This document shows, in pieces, positions 6,951 through 23,790 of a stretch of 64,000 nt of DNA. The notes beneath the pieces are model-generated. The model was not told the origin of the DNA, ran no database searches, and saw only the letters and a list, made by a program, of their open reading frames with translations. Every line of letters begins with the position of its first letter. Position 1 is the stretch's first letter. The translations under genes were made by a program, and so were the position numbers. The stretch lies in NCBI RefSeq assembly GCF_054482595.1, contig NZ_CM137008.1; one strand, given 5' to 3'.

Positions 6951-7274
6951 ATGCTTCTGACAATAGAAGAGATTAAAGCCCAACTCCGGCTGGATGAGGA
7001 TTTCGATACTGATGACCGTCATCTGCAACTGCTGGCCTGTGCGGCGCAAAAGCGGACGGAAACGTATCTGAACCGGAAGCTCTATGCACCGGATGAAACC
7101 ATTCCGGACAGCGATCCGGACGGACTACACCTGCCGGATGATATTCGTCTGGGGATGCTGATGCTTATCAGCCATTTTTACGAAAACCGCTCGTCGGTTA
7201 CGGAAGTGGAGAAACTCGACATGCCGCAGAGTTTTGGCTGGCTTGTCAGCCCGTACAGGTACTTTCCGCAATGA
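6951..7274 (+). CDS. Head-tail connector protein (gp6-like)
   Basis: 107 aa ORF after capsid gene; size, acidic character and position. Confidence 0.65.
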   Translation: MLLTIEEIKAQLRLDEDFDTDDRHLQLLACAAQKRTETYLNRKLYAPDETIPDSDPDGLHLPDDIRLGMLMLISHFYENRSSVTEVEKLDMPQSFGWLVSPYRYFPQ

Positions 7275-8162: not shown

Positions 8163-8719
8163 AACTGACGCCTGTTATTGCTGCACTGCGTGCCCGCTGT
8201 CCGTATTTTGAAAACCGGGTTGCAGGCGCGGCCCAGTTCAAAAATCTGCCGGAGGTCGGAAAGCTGAAACTCCCGGCGGCATATGTTGTACCGGGTGATG
8301 ATTCTCCGGGAGAAAACAAAAGCCAGACCGACTACTGGCAGGAGCTGAAAGAGGGTTTCTCCGTGGTTGTCATACTGAGTAACGGGCGTGATGAGCGCGG
8401 TCAGTTTGCCTCGTATGATGTGGTGGACGATGTCCGGCAGATGCTCTTTAAGGCTCTGCTGGGCTGGAACCCGGAGGCGTGCGGTAACCCGATTACCTAT
8501 GACGGCGGCACGCTGCTGGATCTGAATCGTCATGAGCTGATTTATCAGTTCGATTTTTCGGTCATCAGCGAGCTGACTGAAGACGATACCCGCCAGCAGG
8601 ATGATCTGAACAGTCTGGATGAACTGCAAACGCTGGCGATTGATGTTGATTATCTCGATCCCGGTAACGGGCCTGACGGCGATATCGAACATCACACCGA
8701 AATAACCCTTCCTTCCTGA
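8159..8719 (+). CDS. Tail completion/terminator-like protein (Mu gp37-like)
   Basis: 186 aa ORF immediately upstream of sheath gene. Confidence 0.5.
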   Translation: MKLTPVIAALRARCPYFENRVAGAAQFKNLPEVGKLKLPAAYVVPGDDSPGENKSQTDYWQELKEGFSVVVILSNGRDERGQFASYDVVDDVRQMLFKALLGWNPEACGNPITYDGGTLLDLNRHELIYQFDFSVISELTEDDTRQQDDLNSLDELQTLAIDVDYLDPGNGPDGDIEHHTEITLPS

Positions 8720-8727
8720 GAATCTTC

Positions 8728-8898
8728 ATGTTTGTGAAACCTGTTAAAGGGCGGTCAGTGCCTGACCCTGCCCGCGGTGACCTTTTGCCCACCGAAGGGC
8801 GAAATGTTGACGAGAACAACTACTGGCTGCGCCGTGAAGCAGCGGGTGATATCCGGCGCGTGAATAAAAAGGTGAACACCGATGACGATAAGCTTTAA
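8728..8898 (+). CDS. Small conserved-looking protein preceding the sheath gene (56 aa)
   Basis: Not in ORF track (below 60 aa); read by eye: MFVKPVKGRSVPDPARGDLLPTEGRNVDENNYWLRREAAGDIRRVNKKVNTDDDKL, ends overlapping sheath start. Confidence 0.4.
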   Translation: MFVKPVKGRSVPDPARGDLLPTEGRNVDENNYWLRREAAGDIRRVNKKVNTDDDKL

Positions 8899-19494: not shown

Positions 19495-19904
19495 TGAATG
19501 CGTCATATGCAGTTATTGAAAATGGGATGGTTGTGAATGTCATTGTCTGGGATGGCGAGGCTGAATTCACAGTGCCGGATAATCAGCAGCTCATTGATAT
19601 TTCTGATATCAGTGAGCATCCCGGAATCGGCTGGGGGTATTCAGACGGGGTATTTACTGCGCCGCTCCCTCCGGAACGTTCTCATGATGAACTGGTAGCT
19701 GACGCTGAACAGAAAAAACAGTCGCTGATAGACGCAGCAATGGCCAATATCAGCGTGATTCAGTTAAAGCTGCAGGCCGGGCGCAAACTGACGCAAGAAG
19801 AAACTACCCGACTTAACGTTGTGCTGGATTACATTGACGCGGTGACAGCAACTGATACCAGCACCGCGCCAGATGTCATCTGGCCTGAACTGCCGGAGGC
19901 GTAG
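19494..19904 (+). CDS. Tail fibre assembly protein (Tfa/U-like)
   Basis: Start ATG overlapping fibre stop (taATG); C-terminal ...LDYIDAVTATDTSTAPDVIWPELPEA typical Tfa tail. Confidence 0.75.
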   Translation: MNASYAVIENGMVVNVIVWDGEAEFTVPDNQQLIDISDISEHPGIGWGYSDGVFTAPLPPERSHDELVADAEQKKQSLIDAAMANISVIQLKLQAGRKLTQEETTRLNVVLDYIDAVTATDTSTAPDVIWPELPEA

Positions 19905-20316
19905 GCCATTCAATATCTGGCCCACTGGAAGTATCGACCAGCTCCAGTGCGTCCAGATAATCCAGCCACAAATTATATTGCGCCAGTTCCTCACCTTTCA
20001 GACGACCAATAGCCGCTTTACCAGCCCATTGTTTACTGTTCATATAATCGTTAGCCTGATTAATCAATTGCTGCTTTTCCAGTTCGGCTGCAGCAATCTG
20101 TTCCTCATGTGTTGGTGGTGGAATTTCAGACCATGCAGGAAAACCATTTTCTCCAGCGATACGGATTTTTCCTTTCGGCGGTAATCCGGAAAACTCAATA
20201 TACGCTTGCTCATCAACTTCAACAGCATCATCTGGCCATGAGTCAGCTTGAGTGTAATCCTCTTTCATTTCCAGTGGATAGAAAGAGTTTGTAGTCGCGG
20301 AATATATGTAATTCAT
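19876..20316 (-). CDS. Alternative tail fibre assembly protein (Tfa-prime), inverted orientation
   Basis: 146 aa, convergent with tfa, C-terminus ...WLDYLDALELVDTSSGPDIEWPTPP paralogous to Tfa. Confidence 0.7.
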   Translation of the reverse strand: MNYIYSATTNSFYPLEMKEDYTQADSWPDDAVEVDEQAYIEFSGLPPKGKIRIAGENGFPAWSEIPPPTHEEQIAAAELEKQQLINQANDYMNSKQWAGKAAIGRLKGEELAQYNLWLDYLDALELVDTSSGPDIEWPTPPAVQAR

Positions 20317-20337
20317 TTTTCACTCCATATAGCTAAA

Positions 20338-20730
20338 TTAACAGCCTAACGCTAAAAATGAAGCGCCGAGACCTGGAGTACTGGCTCTGGATATAAATTT
20401 AACCGGGTCGGAACTAAAACCTGCGCAGGCAATATAACCAACAGACCCGCTATCTGGTGTGTAGTCTTGTGAGACCAAAACACGCAGACATCGGTTTGGA
20501 AATGCAATCGGAAAATGGGTTACCACATCCTGTGCAATGCCTGGTGCGCCGATTGAGCCCCACTGAAGAATAAAACCAGATGGTAATTTTTGATATCCAG
20601 TACCTGAAACAGAAAGCGTGAAGCTACCCATATCAGGTATCTGATTCGTCCCTGTCCCCACATTCCTTTTTGCCGCTTCTCCCAAACCAACGTTTATGAA
20701 AATGCAGAAATAACAAGCAAATGGCATCAT
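20338..20730 (-). CDS. Alternative tail fibre variable C-terminal segment (Sv-prime), unexpressed in this orientation
   Basis: Minus-strand ORF upstream of tfa-prime; contains right crossover site and encodes ...FINVGLGE... matching the junction peptide of the expressed fibre. Confidence 0.55.
20678..20700. repeat. Right invertase crossover site (inverted copy)
   Basis: tctcccaaacc AA cgtttatgaa; reverse complement shares ggtttgggaga half-site with left site. Confidence 0.5.
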
Positions 20731-20756: not shown

Positions 20757-20885
20757 ATGCTTATTGGTTATGTACGCGTATCAACAAATGACCAGAATAC
20801 CGATCTACAACGCAATGCGCTGAACTGTGCAGGGTGTGAGCTGATTTTTGAAGACAAGATAAGCGGTACAAAGTCCGAGACCTAG
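20757..20885 (+). pseudogene. pin: Truncated DNA invertase gene (Pin/Gin/Hin family), only about 42 N-terminal codons
   Basis: MLIGYVRVSTNDQNTDLQRNALNCAGCELIFEDKISGTKSET then stop; serine-recombinase N-terminus with catalytic Ser in YVRVSTNDQ; full-length invertases are about 190 aa. Confidence 0.75.
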
Positions 20886-20980
20886 GGCTGACACTGCTGT
20901 TCTTGATGCAAATTAAAGGATTTAATAGTGAGTAGCGGCCTTACTAATGTAAGGCCGCTATAATCATTTTATTAATTGCA

Positions 20981-22870
20981 TTAATCGTGTTTTGGCCATA
21001 CTTTCAATGCAATTTCCCCCAACTTTTTACCCCGCTCCAGGATTTCATCCTCATCCCATTTATCCTTAACTATAAGTGGAATGTTCAGTCGTAGATTGGT
21101 GTGGACGATGAGAGCATCACGTTTTTTCAGAAATACAGCATTCTGAACAGAACGGTTTACGCTAAGGTTAAGCAAAGTTAGATTTCCCAACGTAGCTATC
21201 GCTTGTTGCCGTTTCCTTACCAGTAGCTGTTCAGGGGTAAGATCGGTTCCAGACAGAACAATTTGGTTCAATACCGTAGCATCTGAATTTGTCACCATAT
21301 GACCATTTTCGAGAGGCCAACAGGAAAACCAACTTTGAGGCATAAGATGATCGATATCGAGATTGGAAAGATTTGGACCATCAGGCTTCTCTGTCTTCAC
21401 TTGGCGACAAAGTTCTCTTTCAAGTTCCGTTAACATTGAGCGCATTTTCGGTGCGTCGAGCCTGCCAGGATAAAGTGGAGCATTGATGCAAGCATTGAGA
21501 AATTCTGAGTCACCAGGCCAACGTGAGGCTTCGCCATTTAAGCTATTGAGGATATTACGTAACTCAACACTGGAAATTTCCGTTTTAGACAAGTGCCGCA
21601 ATACATTCATAAATACATTGTTGTAATTCTTTGGCGTCAGGCCACATACGGCTCTTCGTACTACGTAGGAGACAAGATCATTATACATGGCTGCTTTCTC
21701 ATCATCAGCGATGTTAGCTATCGAAATGAACAAAGCAAGCGGATAAAGTGTCGTCACATCATAGTCTGCGATGCGATATCCAAAGTGTGAGATGGGGGTT
21801 GTGCCAAAACCATCAACCAATTCTTTATATTGTGATGCATATTGTTTGAGGCGCTTTACTTGCAGATCTGCTCGTTGTGAAGACAAGTCCTTACTTACAT
21901 AATCACGATACTCATTGTAAAGGCGAGACAGATCAATTTCACGCTGCCTTTCTGATTGCAATGTCGCATGTACTAGCCACTCCATGCGTGGTTTATTAAT
22001 ACGTCCACGGCGTTGCTTTTCCGACCAGTATTTATCTTCAAAGCTCTTCCACTCATTTTCATATAATTCAATAGCATTAATATTTTCATGCTCAGCGCAC
22101 ATAAAGATATAGTTGCGAATAAGATCCGTGGCATGAAGTTCCGCCCCTCGCCCATTTAATGTTTCAAAAATTATTTGGGCATCATCTTCAGCTTCGAGAA
22201 ATATGCTTACCAGTTTCAGATCTGTTAAGACAGCCTCAATTAGAGCTACAGCATTTTCTTGTGGTGAGTGGTTTTCTATTTTAATCCATTTTATAAAGGC
22301 TTCAGTAAAAAAACATAATGCTTCTAGTGATGGCGGGTGATTAAAATGCTTACGCAACGTACCATGCTGCGTGAAACTATCAGAGAATACGTCCCGGAGA
22401 TCGTCAATATTTTCAACATTAAAACTTTGAATAAAATGAGTTTGATCCCGAAAAGTTGGCCATAGTTTGAAGCGTTCTACTTCTTTATTTCGCATTGTGT
22501 CTTCGTTTGAGTTTTTCAGGCAAGGCGAAATGAGAGCCTCTAAGCTGAAAAGATCCGTAGCACGTAATGCTAATCGGATGGATGCCAGAACATATTGAAG
22601 AGTGGTCAATCGTTGCTGACCATCAATAATATGTATGGAATCTACACCTAATAATCCTTTTTTTGATTGAGGTTCCAGTACAACCGCACCAAGGAAATGG
22701 GGAGTTGGTTTTGTACCCGAGAGCCGGGATTGTGCTTTCTCTAGGATATCCTCCAGTAGAGCTGACCATTGGTCTTGCTGAGTCCATACATAGGCACGTT
22801 GATAGAATGGAACACAGTATTGTCGGCGGTCTTGAAAAAGTTGTTGGACAGTTAGCGTCTCGGATTTCAT
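20981..22870 (-). CDS. GmrSD-like type IV restriction endonuclease candidate (DUF262 N-terminal, DUF1524 C-terminal)
   Basis: ORF 20981..22930; motifs FYQRAYVW and IIDGQQRLTTL (DUF262) and NLDIDHLMPQSW (DUF1524 His-Me); probable start MKSETLTVQQ at 22870 with AGG SD; visibly AT-rich. Confidence 0.8.
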   Translation of the reverse strand: MKSETLTVQQLFQDRRQYCVPFYQRAYVWTQQDQWSALLEDILEKAQSRLSGTKPTPHFLGAVVLEPQSKKGLLGVDSIHIIDGQQRLTTLQYVLASIRLALRATDLFSLEALISPCLKNSNEDTMRNKEVERFKLWPTFRDQTHFIQSFNVENIDDLRDVFSDSFTQHGTLRKHFNHPPSLEALCFFTEAFIKWIKIENHSPQENAVALIEAVLTDLKLVSIFLEAEDDAQIIFETLNGRGAELHATDLIRNYIFMCAEHENINAIELYENEWKSFEDKYWSEKQRRGRINKPRMEWLVHATLQSERQREIDLSRLYNEYRDYVSKDLSSQRADLQVKRLKQYASQYKELVDGFGTTPISHFGYRIADYDVTTLYPLALFISIANIADDEKAAMYNDLVSYVVRRAVCGLTPKNYNNVFMNVLRHLSKTEISSVELRNILNSLNGEASRWPGDSEFLNACINAPLYPGRLDAPKMRSMLTELERELCRQVKTEKPDGPNLSNLDIDHLMPQSWFSCWPLENGHMVTNSDATVLNQIVLSGTDLTPEQLLVRKRQQAIATLGNLTLLNLSVNRSVQNAVFLKKRDALIVHTNLRLNIPLIVKDKWDEDEILERGKKLGEIALKVWPKHD

Positions 22871-23140
22871 GGTATACCTGTAAGCGACATTGTACAAAAG
22901 TGAGGAGTTAATCTGATTTAGAACAATCATTTTATTTTGCTATGATACAACGTATTTGTTACCGGTTAAGCAAAAAACGCGTCTGAACGCTGACGTTTTA
23001 GGGCTTTACTGGTTATTCTTTCTTATCTCTTCATCATCCCATCGGCATCCTGTCGAGGTTGTTGACTTGTTGTTATTTATTTTGTCTAGGCGCTGTTTAA
23101 TTATTATTGATAGAACTGATGGTGAGAGGTGATTGAAACC

Positions 23141-23225: not shown

Positions 23226-23472
23226 CTAGTGAACAAACAACTCTTCAGTAGACTCTCAGGTATCATTCAGAGTTTCCTGAACGAAAGTTTTAGCTCAATC
23301 TTTATCTGCAGTATGTCTAACTGAAAAACTATCGTTGCTGGTGGCTTTTACGATCATCTCCACATCGTCATAACGCTTGCCAATGTGTTGGGTTAATTCT
23401 TCCTTTAACGCGTCCACAGCGCCGTTTGGCATTTGGTCATTTGTCTTTGGCTATGGAGATCTCAATACGCAT
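23226..23472 (-). pseudogene. dinI-family gene remnant disrupted by a frameshift and two in-frame TGA codons
   Basis: Minus strand reads [11 protein letters not shown] then, one nucleotide out of frame, [66 protein letters not shown]; resembles DinI (MRIEVTIAKTSPLPAGAIDALAGEL...SVRY...ILQETWESADDWFV) as recalled; length about 246 nt. Confidence 0.55.
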
Positions 23473-23677
23473 AACACTTCTTTTGTACTGCGTTTGTAGA
23501 CAGTATTATTCTTATCTGTGTAAATAAACAGTATCAAGACTTCGTTTTAGCTGCATAAGAAAAAAGAGATGGATACATTCGGAAAGCTTTTGATGGTGGT
23601 AGGCTAAGTGAATAGCCTAAAGGTGTTTTACCCCAATTATTCCCCGGTATTTCTCCGCATAAAAAACAATCATAAAA

Positions 23678-23710
23678 AAACCAGCCATAATAGGCTGGTT
23701 TTTAAGGGAT
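23678..23710 (-). terminator. proL terminator (hairpin flanked by A and T runs, bidirectional)
   Basis: aaaaaaa ccagcc ataata ggctgg ttttt just 3' of the tRNA on the minus strand. Confidence 0.5.
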
Positions 23711-23713
23711 TTT

Positions 23714-23790
23714 TGGTCGGCACGAGAGGATTTGAACCTCCGACCCCCGACACCCCATGACGGTGCGCTACCAGGCTGCGCTACGTGCCG
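23714..23790 (-). tRNA. proL: tRNA-Pro (anticodon GGG)
   Basis: Reverse complement cggcacgtagcgcagcctggtagcgcaccgtcatggggtgtcgggggtcggaggttcaaatcctctcgtgccgacca; cloverleaf with U33-GGG-G37 anticodon loop, TTCAAAT T-loop and CCA end. Confidence 0.92.

Follow-up and report, generated by a model that had tools for sequence, protein, structure and literature searches.

A truncated pin invertase gene joined to gmrSD in Escherichia coli prophages, beside a tail-fibre segment found in both orientations

Here we describe a 42-codon remnant of a Pin-family invertase gene (hereafter the stub) that lies between a tail-fibre switch and a gmrSD restriction gene near the right end of a prophage. The best explanation of this arrangement, to which we give a probability of roughly 0.7, is that the 3' part of pin was replaced by gmrSD and that the neighbouring switch is still flipped in trans, using an enhancer retained in the stub. 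The stub and the GmrSD gene had already been annotated, and the location of GmrSD has been published. What is added here is that the junction between the two is old and widely shared, that the event was a replacement, and that the switch still changes orientation, most likely because invertases from other prophages act on cis elements in the stub or next to it. Since the action of Pin enzymes in trans, the 5' position of the enhancer and the presence of GmrSD in SfII-like prophages were all established before, we regard this as refining what was known and not as a discovery. An invertase called as a pseudogene does not imply that the phase-variable segment next to it is frozen, and the locus provides a natural test case of an enhancer working outside its gene and of cross-talk from one prophage to another.

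The stub and its prophage

The window (the whole 64-kb stretch of contig NZ_CM137008.1 that was analysed) contains a prophage's late and tail region, with baseplate genes of the Mu type, followed by the tail-fibre region, the stub, gmrSD, tRNA-Pro(GGG) and yejM. It is the right end of a prophage of the SfV/SfII/e14 type, with a Mu-type tail, integrated at the tRNA-Pro gene proL (Table 1). The prophage ends inside this tRNA gene, and genomes without this insert at proL match the window only from 23672 or 23712 rightwards. The same right end (window 23672-23764) is found in the ssrA-adjacent prophage of WP2-S18-ESBL-07 (L002 about 6997-7089), where it includes the last 51 nt of tRNA-Pro (23714-23764) and the terminator before similarity stops at 23764. 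This suggests either that a proL-type attachment region has been kept at another site or that the island there is tandem or composite.

Table 1. Features of the tail-fibre switch, the stub and the gmrSD region (window coordinates)
Feature	Position	Strand	Remarks
Expressed tail-fibre gene	18568-19494	+	Constant N-terminal part up to pixL; glycine-rich variable C-terminal part in the segment
pixL, left 26-bp crossover site	18845-18870		Core 18857-18858; within the tail-fibre gene; inverted repeat with pixR
Invertible P-type segment, 1.83 kb	18857-20690		Two alternative tail-fibre tips and two assembly genes
Tail-fibre assembly gene, expressed orientation	19470-19904	+	ORF; homologues annotated as tail fiber assembly protein
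Alternative tail-fibre assembly gene, yfdK-like, silent orientation	19876-20316	-	RefSeq yfdK / tail fiber assembly protein
Alternative tail-fibre tip, gp53-like domain	20338-20730	-	Without its own start; joins the constant part upon inversion
pixR, right 26-bp crossover site, TTCTCCCAAACCAACGTTTATGAAAA	20677-20702		Core AA at 20689-20690; 55 bp upstream of the stub
Pin invertase stub	20757-20885	+	ATG at 20757, TAG at 20883-20885; 42 codons plus stop
Putative Fis-dependent enhancer block	20779-20841		Homologous to the hin/gin enhancer; assigned by homology
gmrSD cassette	20879-23135		Limits from comparison with prophages carrying other cargo
Decayed invertase continuation	20879-20920	+	About pin nt 123-165; out of frame here through a 1-nt deletion
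Hairpin	20933-20960		Perfect 12-bp stem, 4-nt loop; between the convergent stub and gmrSD
gmrSD, single-chain type IV (modification-dependent) restriction endonuclease	20981-22870	-	629 aa; PADLOC, Pfam and residues
DinI-like pseudogene, frameshifted with internal stop	23256-23473	-	RefSeq annotation from L001; kept at the prophage end in many relatives
tRNA-Pro(GGG) proL, integration site	23714-23790	-	ARAGORN

The ORF of the stub translates as MLIGYVRVSTNDQNTDLQRNALNCAGCELIFEDKISGTKSET followed by the stop. Its residues 1-41 are all identical to those of intact PinE (41/41; tblastn, E 1e-23), and nucleotide identity to pinE nt 1-122 is about 97%. The N-terminal catalytic motif of Din-family invertases, with its serine nucleophile (YVRVST...), is present, and the Pfam Resolvase model matches residues 3-45 of a frame-corrected sister allele (E 2.7e-8). 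With the stop after codon 42, the complete resolvase catalytic domain and the C-terminal helix-turn-helix (about 180-200 aa) are absent. The stub is a gene remnant and not a member of the Din family of serine invertases (Pin/Gin/Cin/Hin); its homologues already carry the RefSeq label 'recombinase family protein, incomplete, missing C-terminus', which is a pseudogene call. The first-pass annotation, made from the letters of the window, had also considered a full-length enzyme encoded by a spliced or shifted frame. This is excluded, because tblastn with intact PinE detected no second pin-like sequence in any frame of the whole 64-kb window.

Much of that annotation is borne out. It had described a Pin-family 5' remnant of about 42 codons, ending after GTKSET, that abuts the 3' end of a GmrSD-like gene across a hairpin and an AT-rich flank, at the edge of an island. 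The cargo region lies between the tail-fibre switch and the end of the prophage, with the stub indeed at its left edge. The gmrSD gene is convergent with the stub, GC content falls to 0.38-0.41 downstream of the stub, and the hairpin between the two genes is probably a bidirectional terminator.

The K-12 element e14 has the same gene order as the window (ymfQ, stfP, tfaP, tfaE, stfE, pinE, mcrA, icd'), with the stub in the place of pinE and gmrSD in the place of mcrA, and its pix sites and the first 122 nt of its pin gene are near-identical to those of the window. The two differ in that pinE of e14 is intact and mcrA lies on the same strand, whereas the window has a 42-codon stub with gmrSD on the opposite strand; e14 is moreover cryptic, while the prophage at proL looks structurally complete within the window. 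One copy of the stub and gmrSD is found at icd, the site of e14 itself. The slot that mcrA takes in K-12 e14 (L037 4242-5075) is filled in NCTC9041 by a LEM-3-like GIY-YIG nuclease gene, which follows an intact pinE (L004 4702-5475). In PMV-1 and UTI89 a gene of the LEM-3-like GIY-YIG nuclease type lies beyond gmrSD (L013 8044-8817). In e14/SfV-type prophages, restriction or nuclease cargo (mcrA, gmrSD, GIY-YIG) thus recurs in the slot that separates the tail-fibre switch from the attachment site.

The gmrSD cassette and the loss of the pin 3' part

Homology and the RefSeq annotation set the start of gmrSD at 22870, giving a protein of 629 aa in place of the 649 aa of the mechanical ORF. This protein matches the PADLOC model mREase_IV (type IV methyl-directed restriction enzyme) over the full model length (1418 bits). 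It comprises an N-terminal GmrSD_N domain (PF03235, DUF262; residues 8-256, E 7e-34), with DGQQR at residue 83, and a C-terminal GmrSD_C domain (PF07510, DUF1524, HNH-type nuclease; residues 451-619). The domains, the catalytic residue numbers and the length of 629 aa are those of the Eco94GmrSD, UTI89_C2960 and CT596 GmrS-GmrD group (He et al. 2015, PMC4437046). Residues D507, H508, C517, N522, N528 and N535 have the numbers of those mutated in Eco94GmrSD, in which D507, H508 and N522 are essential (PMC4437046). Judged by its sequence, the gene downstream of the stub is an allele of the characterised Eco94GmrSD/UTI89 GmrSD. Its specificity is not necessarily identical to that of Eco94GmrSD; cleavage of glucosylated-5hmC or 5hmC DNA and restriction of T-even phages have been shown for the close alleles Eco94GmrSD and CT596 GmrSD, and the UTI89 and STEC_94C enzymes are unlike in phage restriction and in sensitivity to IPI* (PMC4437046).

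The published location of Eco94GmrSD is an SfII-like prophage, directly after the tail-fibre genes, as here, and Eco94GmrSD, the UTI89 enzyme and APECO1_3911 were all placed 'immediately downstream' of prophage tail-fibre genes (PMC4437046). The UTI89 copy belongs to the ssrA lineage that we analyse below. Since that paper describes the UTI89 and APEC O1 homologues in this place, both the defence gene and its position were already published; the invertase remnant and the invertible segment go unmentioned in it (PMC4437046).

Similarity to the NCTC9041 locus with intact pinE (L004) ends at 20878 and resumes at 23136, and it is at 23136, 3' of the DinI-like pseudogene, that right-side similarity to prophages with other cargo begins again. 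The cassette so delimited (20879-23135) is found in 311 of 5426 complete E. coli genomes, with matches that always begin at its first 1-3 bases, and at every locus inspected it is preceded by the stub. The junction between the stub and gmrSD occurs at no fewer than five chromosomal sites, at least (proL, ssrA, icd, which is the e14 site, a ydfV-adjacent site, and others), and the copies of the cassette are 92-100% identical to one another. Of the 20 IMG/VR contigs with the downstream flank, 19 also carry this stub. None of the 311 E. coli genomes, of the phages in the collection or of the 20 IMG/VR contigs has an intact pin before this gmrSD. A single scan of species-representative genomes likewise returned none with an intact pin before gmrSD; it did return a 78% gmrSD homologue outside any prophage in 'Enterobacteriaceae bacterium B14', with similarity limited to the ORF, and a 47% homologue in a Nitrospira MAG. 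Because the junction is widespread and a version with intact pin was not found, the truncation is old and the stub and gmrSD travel together, as an old module that moves between related prophages as a unit.

These results bear on the claim of the first-pass annotation that the defence gene arrived in this prophage by an event that destroyed its invertase. In its strongest form, this would be a recent local insertion that killed the invertase and froze the switch, with the stub as inert boundary debris. Such an account agrees with a stub that cannot encode a recombinase, with its position at the left edge of the cargo and with the single orientation seen in 26 of 27 genomes of the proL lineage. 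It is contradicted by the same junction in 311 genomes, at five or more sites and with up to 8% divergence, by the lack of a target-site duplication and of a pin 3' part beyond gmrSD, and by the occurrence of both orientations beside an identical stub in three lineages (see below). The shared junction, as read from sequence comparison, largely refutes a recent local insertion, and we consider it very unlikely. The annotation had named as a counter-case the same ORF and downstream sequence without a defence gene; no such copy, with the stub and flank but entirely lacking gmrSD, turned up, and where gmrSD is damaged it is interrupted by an IS element.

In sister strains gmrSD has been hit by IS elements repeatedly. 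An IS2 with a 5-bp duplication lies about 165 bp upstream of the gmrSD start in ACN001, NC22 and CH4790 (corresponding to window 23033-23037; compare L001 5738/7070). In 50EVA an IS3-family element (L008 about 8512-9752) has removed the 5' end of the gene, and in AHM8C160RI only the C-terminal nuclease part is left, beside IS3.

The end of the stub ORF does not coincide with the end of pin-derived DNA. High identity to pinE stops at 20877/20878, which is pin nt 121/122. From pin nt 120 to 165, reaching about 20920, the sequence still aligns in register with three invertase genes at 51-58% identity (shuffle p <= 2e-4), and past pin nt 165 the match to invertase genes is random. Sister alleles have one G more (GAGAGCC versus GAGACC; GAGAGCCTAGGG), and their reading frame continues as ...GTKSESLGLTVLFLMQIKG... 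to a total of 48 codons. The stop after GTKSET is therefore a lineage-specific 1-nt deletion and not the breakpoint, which had first been put near 20885. Since both the decayed match and the Pfam Resolvase alignment (to residue 45 of the sister allele) run past the stop, pin-derived DNA ends near 20920, and after the stop of the stub about 14 more decayed pin codons follow.

As to the kind of event, tblastn over the 64 kb found no pin 3' part beyond gmrSD. No target-site duplication surrounds the cassette, and the flanking repeats, which the annotation had suggested looking for, are short and at chance level. An invertase-mediated deletion at a secondary pix-like site was considered and rejected, as no site scores 15/24 or more apart from pixL and pixR. 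With no pin 3' part, no duplication and no secondary site, the event was a replacement or deletion by illegitimate recombination rather than a simple insertion, so that of the two alternatives offered earlier, insertion or replacement, it is replacement that stands. In an ancestor of the module, pin beyond about codon 55 was replaced by a cassette carrying gmrSD. Retained were pixR, the promoter region of pin and its first 122 nt, and after these come about 45 nt of pin that have decayed. The arrival of gmrSD and the truncation of pin may or may not have been one and the same event. The best flanking repeat, a perfect 12-nt direct repeat, AATCATTTTATT, brackets the gmrSD ORF (20962-20973 and 22925-22936) and is probably due to chance, being about what is expected in 3 kb of AT-rich DNA.

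Orientation of the tail-fibre segment

Upstream of the stub, the tail-fibre region has the layout of the Mu G and e14 P switches, with a constant 5' part and two oppositely oriented sets of a tip and an assembly gene. The cognate invertase that lies adjacent to the segment in those switches is represented here by the 42-codon stub alone. Homologues of the expressed tail-fibre gene are named stfP or glycine-rich domain protein in RefSeq, and its 5' end is 96% identical to a tail gene of phage SfV. pixL and pixR are the only two sites in the region that score 20/24 against the pix consensus, and their core dinucleotides are the same. The right site is unchanged across the aligned loci and is also the mosaic boundary with other prophages, and the left one is an inversion junction in 50EVA (L008).

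To look for inverted copies, we assembled the predicted product of inversion and used its right-hand junction (450 nt of the interior plus 400 nt of the stub and gmrSD flank) as the query. In the proL lineage, 26 genomes have the orientation of the window (99.8-100% identity), and one, 50EVA, has the flipped junction (850/850 nt) at the same proL site. The alignment of 50EVA to the window gives 99.98% identity in the left flank, 99.8% in the inverted interior (window 18848-20700) and 100% in the right flank, with both joints in the pix sites, and the flipped form is a complete gp53-like tail-fibre gene of 213 aa. Given the ratio of 26:1, flipping in the proL lineage may be rare. In the ydfV-adjacent lineage, strains 127 and T2 differ by a clean inversion. 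The ssrA lineage is divided between 24 genomes in one orientation (including PMV-1, IHE3034 and APEC O1) and 79 in the other (including UTI89, S88, NU14 and ATCC 11775); PMV-1 and UTI89 again differ by a clean inversion, with 100% identity over a right flank of 4915 nt and 97.5% in the left flank.

Flipped and unflipped copies all share the truncated stub, and the inversions therefore postdate the loss of the invertase. The switch is not dead, for in three lineages the segment occurs either way round next to one and the same stub, with its joints at the pix sites. The truncation described in the first-pass annotation is real, and its consequence was overstated. Differences between assemblies are a record that flips occurred rather than of their frequency or of the enzyme responsible, as far as sequence comparison goes.

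The same differences might also arise by RecA recombination between short inverted repeats, or by replacement of the tail-fibre region from a prophage with the opposite orientation. Tail-fibre cassettes are in fact mosaic between prophages, with a boundary at pixR, and the left flanks of PMV-1 and UTI89 are merely 97.5% identical; the joints would fall in the repeats under either mechanism, and sequence alone cannot separate the two. However, the shared repeats are only about 22-24 bp long and contain mismatches, about as little as RecA recombination can use, and import is difficult to reconcile with 50EVA and T2, whose flanks and interior are 99.8-100% identical to those of an unflipped relative. 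The same event would also have had to occur in three lineages, while Pin enzymes are documented to invert P segments in trans (PMC12529663). We therefore hold RecA recombination or import to be distinctly unlikely and favour site-specific inversion at the pix sites by an invertase.

Probable inversion in trans and the retained 5' end of pin

Because a product of 42 residues cannot recombine DNA, the invertase must come from elsewhere. We propose that the segment is inverted in trans by Pin/Gin-type invertases of co-resident prophages. The e14 P segment is inverted in trans by PinQ and PinR, and PinE works on Mu G and on the H segment of Salmonella, the latter being also a target of Fin of Fels-2 (PMC12529663). 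As in the complementation of a Mu gin mutant by e14 pin, and in the action of PinQ/PinR on P and of Fin on H, the enzyme would be encoded elsewhere than beside its target. Those cases concern laboratory mutants or segments with their own invertase, whereas here a natural and widespread lineage is without a cognate enzyme; and the trans action proposed here is deduced from an orientation polymorphism, in contrast to those cases.

As for candidate enzymes, pin-like DNA that covers at least 80% of the gene is present in 1524 of 5426 genomes, at the sensitivity of megablast. A P2-like prophage of UTI89 encodes an intact Gin-like invertase of 199 aa (L014 5037-5636) that shares 79% identity with PinE and has an invertible segment of its own next to it. 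The gix-type site there, TTCCTGTAAACCGAGGTTTTAAATAA (L014 4958-4983), has the core GA, in contrast to the pix core AA of the stub-bearing prophage, and we assume, by analogy with known cross-complementation, that this enzyme could act on pix sites. In 50EVA a megablast query with the pin 5' region matched one place, so that a close pinE is absent from this genome; distant invertases would fall below this level of detection.

The stub also contains a block homologous to the Fis-dependent enhancer of hin and gin. Within it we place two candidate Fis sites, TATCAACAAATGACC (20779-20793) and GTGCAGGGTGTGAGC (20827-20841), by homology, presumably as the counterparts of the hin sites. The centres of the two candidates are 48 bp apart, with about 96 bp between the pixR core and the first of them. 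In Hin the enhancer spans 65 bp, lies about 100 bp from hixL and is located in the N-terminal coding region, and wild-type Hin is inactive without Fis or the enhancer (PMC3798978, PMC2724282); the gin coding region contains Fis sites as well (PMC3378877). The homologous block in the stub thus lies at the native distance from the crossover site. The Hin/Gin enhancer (sis) sits in an intact gene, whereas the candidate block would, by analogy, work without the surrounding gene. We infer that the retained 5' part of pin may supply in cis the Fis-dependent enhancer for enzymes acting in trans.

A further step would be that the stub is maintained as a cis module, consisting of pixR and the Fis enhancer, in a prophage that has dropped its own invertase, used the slot for a defence gene and flips its switch with the invertases of co-resident prophages. 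This reading is tentative, and we would put it somewhat short of even odds. Over its first 122 nt the stub has kept about 97% identity to live pinE, in contrast to the decayed 45 nt that follow. This fits a retained cis function, as does the independent truncation described below, although repeated recombination with intact pin genes would also explain the identity. Retention of the enhancer is itself weak evidence of selection, because the enhancer is 5' in the gene and most random 3' truncations keep it.

It may also be that inversion in trans is real and the stub irrelevant to it, its length being accidental and the enhancer either not needed or its function supplied by Fis sites elsewhere. 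Pin nt 1-90 would survive in about 84% of random 3' truncations. Extra synonymous-site conservation, looked for as a mark of the enhancer, is confined to codons 1-15, and the stub has diverged between lineages about as much as the neighbouring DNA; E. coli also has pin remnants that lack the 5' end. Against this, wild-type Din invertases require the enhancer in cis (PMC3798978), and identity to live pinE drops from 97% over nt 1-122 to the 51-58% of the next 45 nt. In addition, an independent truncation of pin (L010) ends at about pin nt 106, just past the enhancer block, where an ORF of the XF1762 family takes over. On balance we regard an irrelevant stub as rather unlikely, though a serious alternative, and we prefer the reading in which trans enzymes use its enhancer.

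The start codon and the upstream region of the stub are kept in the aligned copies, with the exception of one IMG/VR contig, as would be the case if the 42-residue peptide itself were functional, for example as a regulator or as a dominant-negative partner of other invertases. However, sister lineages differ after codon 41 (42 versus 48 codons), one copy lacks the first 54 nt, and nothing else points to a function of the peptide, which makes this extremely unlikely. The exceptional contig, UViG_2671181100_000008 (L019 about 1465-1547), is the one remaining among the 20 in IMG/VR, and its stub lacks pixR as well as pin nt 1-54. If inversion in trans at the pix sites is the correct model, the tail-fibre segment of this contig should be locked.

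The net effect of the proposed arrangement would be that the prophage keeps its tail-fibre variation with a defence gene in the place of its own invertase. If, in addition, the stub is maintained as a cis module, then in about 6% of E. coli genomes the switching of tail fibres would depend on which other prophages are present.

In the independently truncated copy (NZ_CM148343.1, in a prophage beside torT; L010 4517-5221), about 35 pin codons are fused in frame to a 234-aa 'XF1762 family protein'. The real start of the XF1762 protein is probably internal, and the annotated product looks like an annotation chimera.
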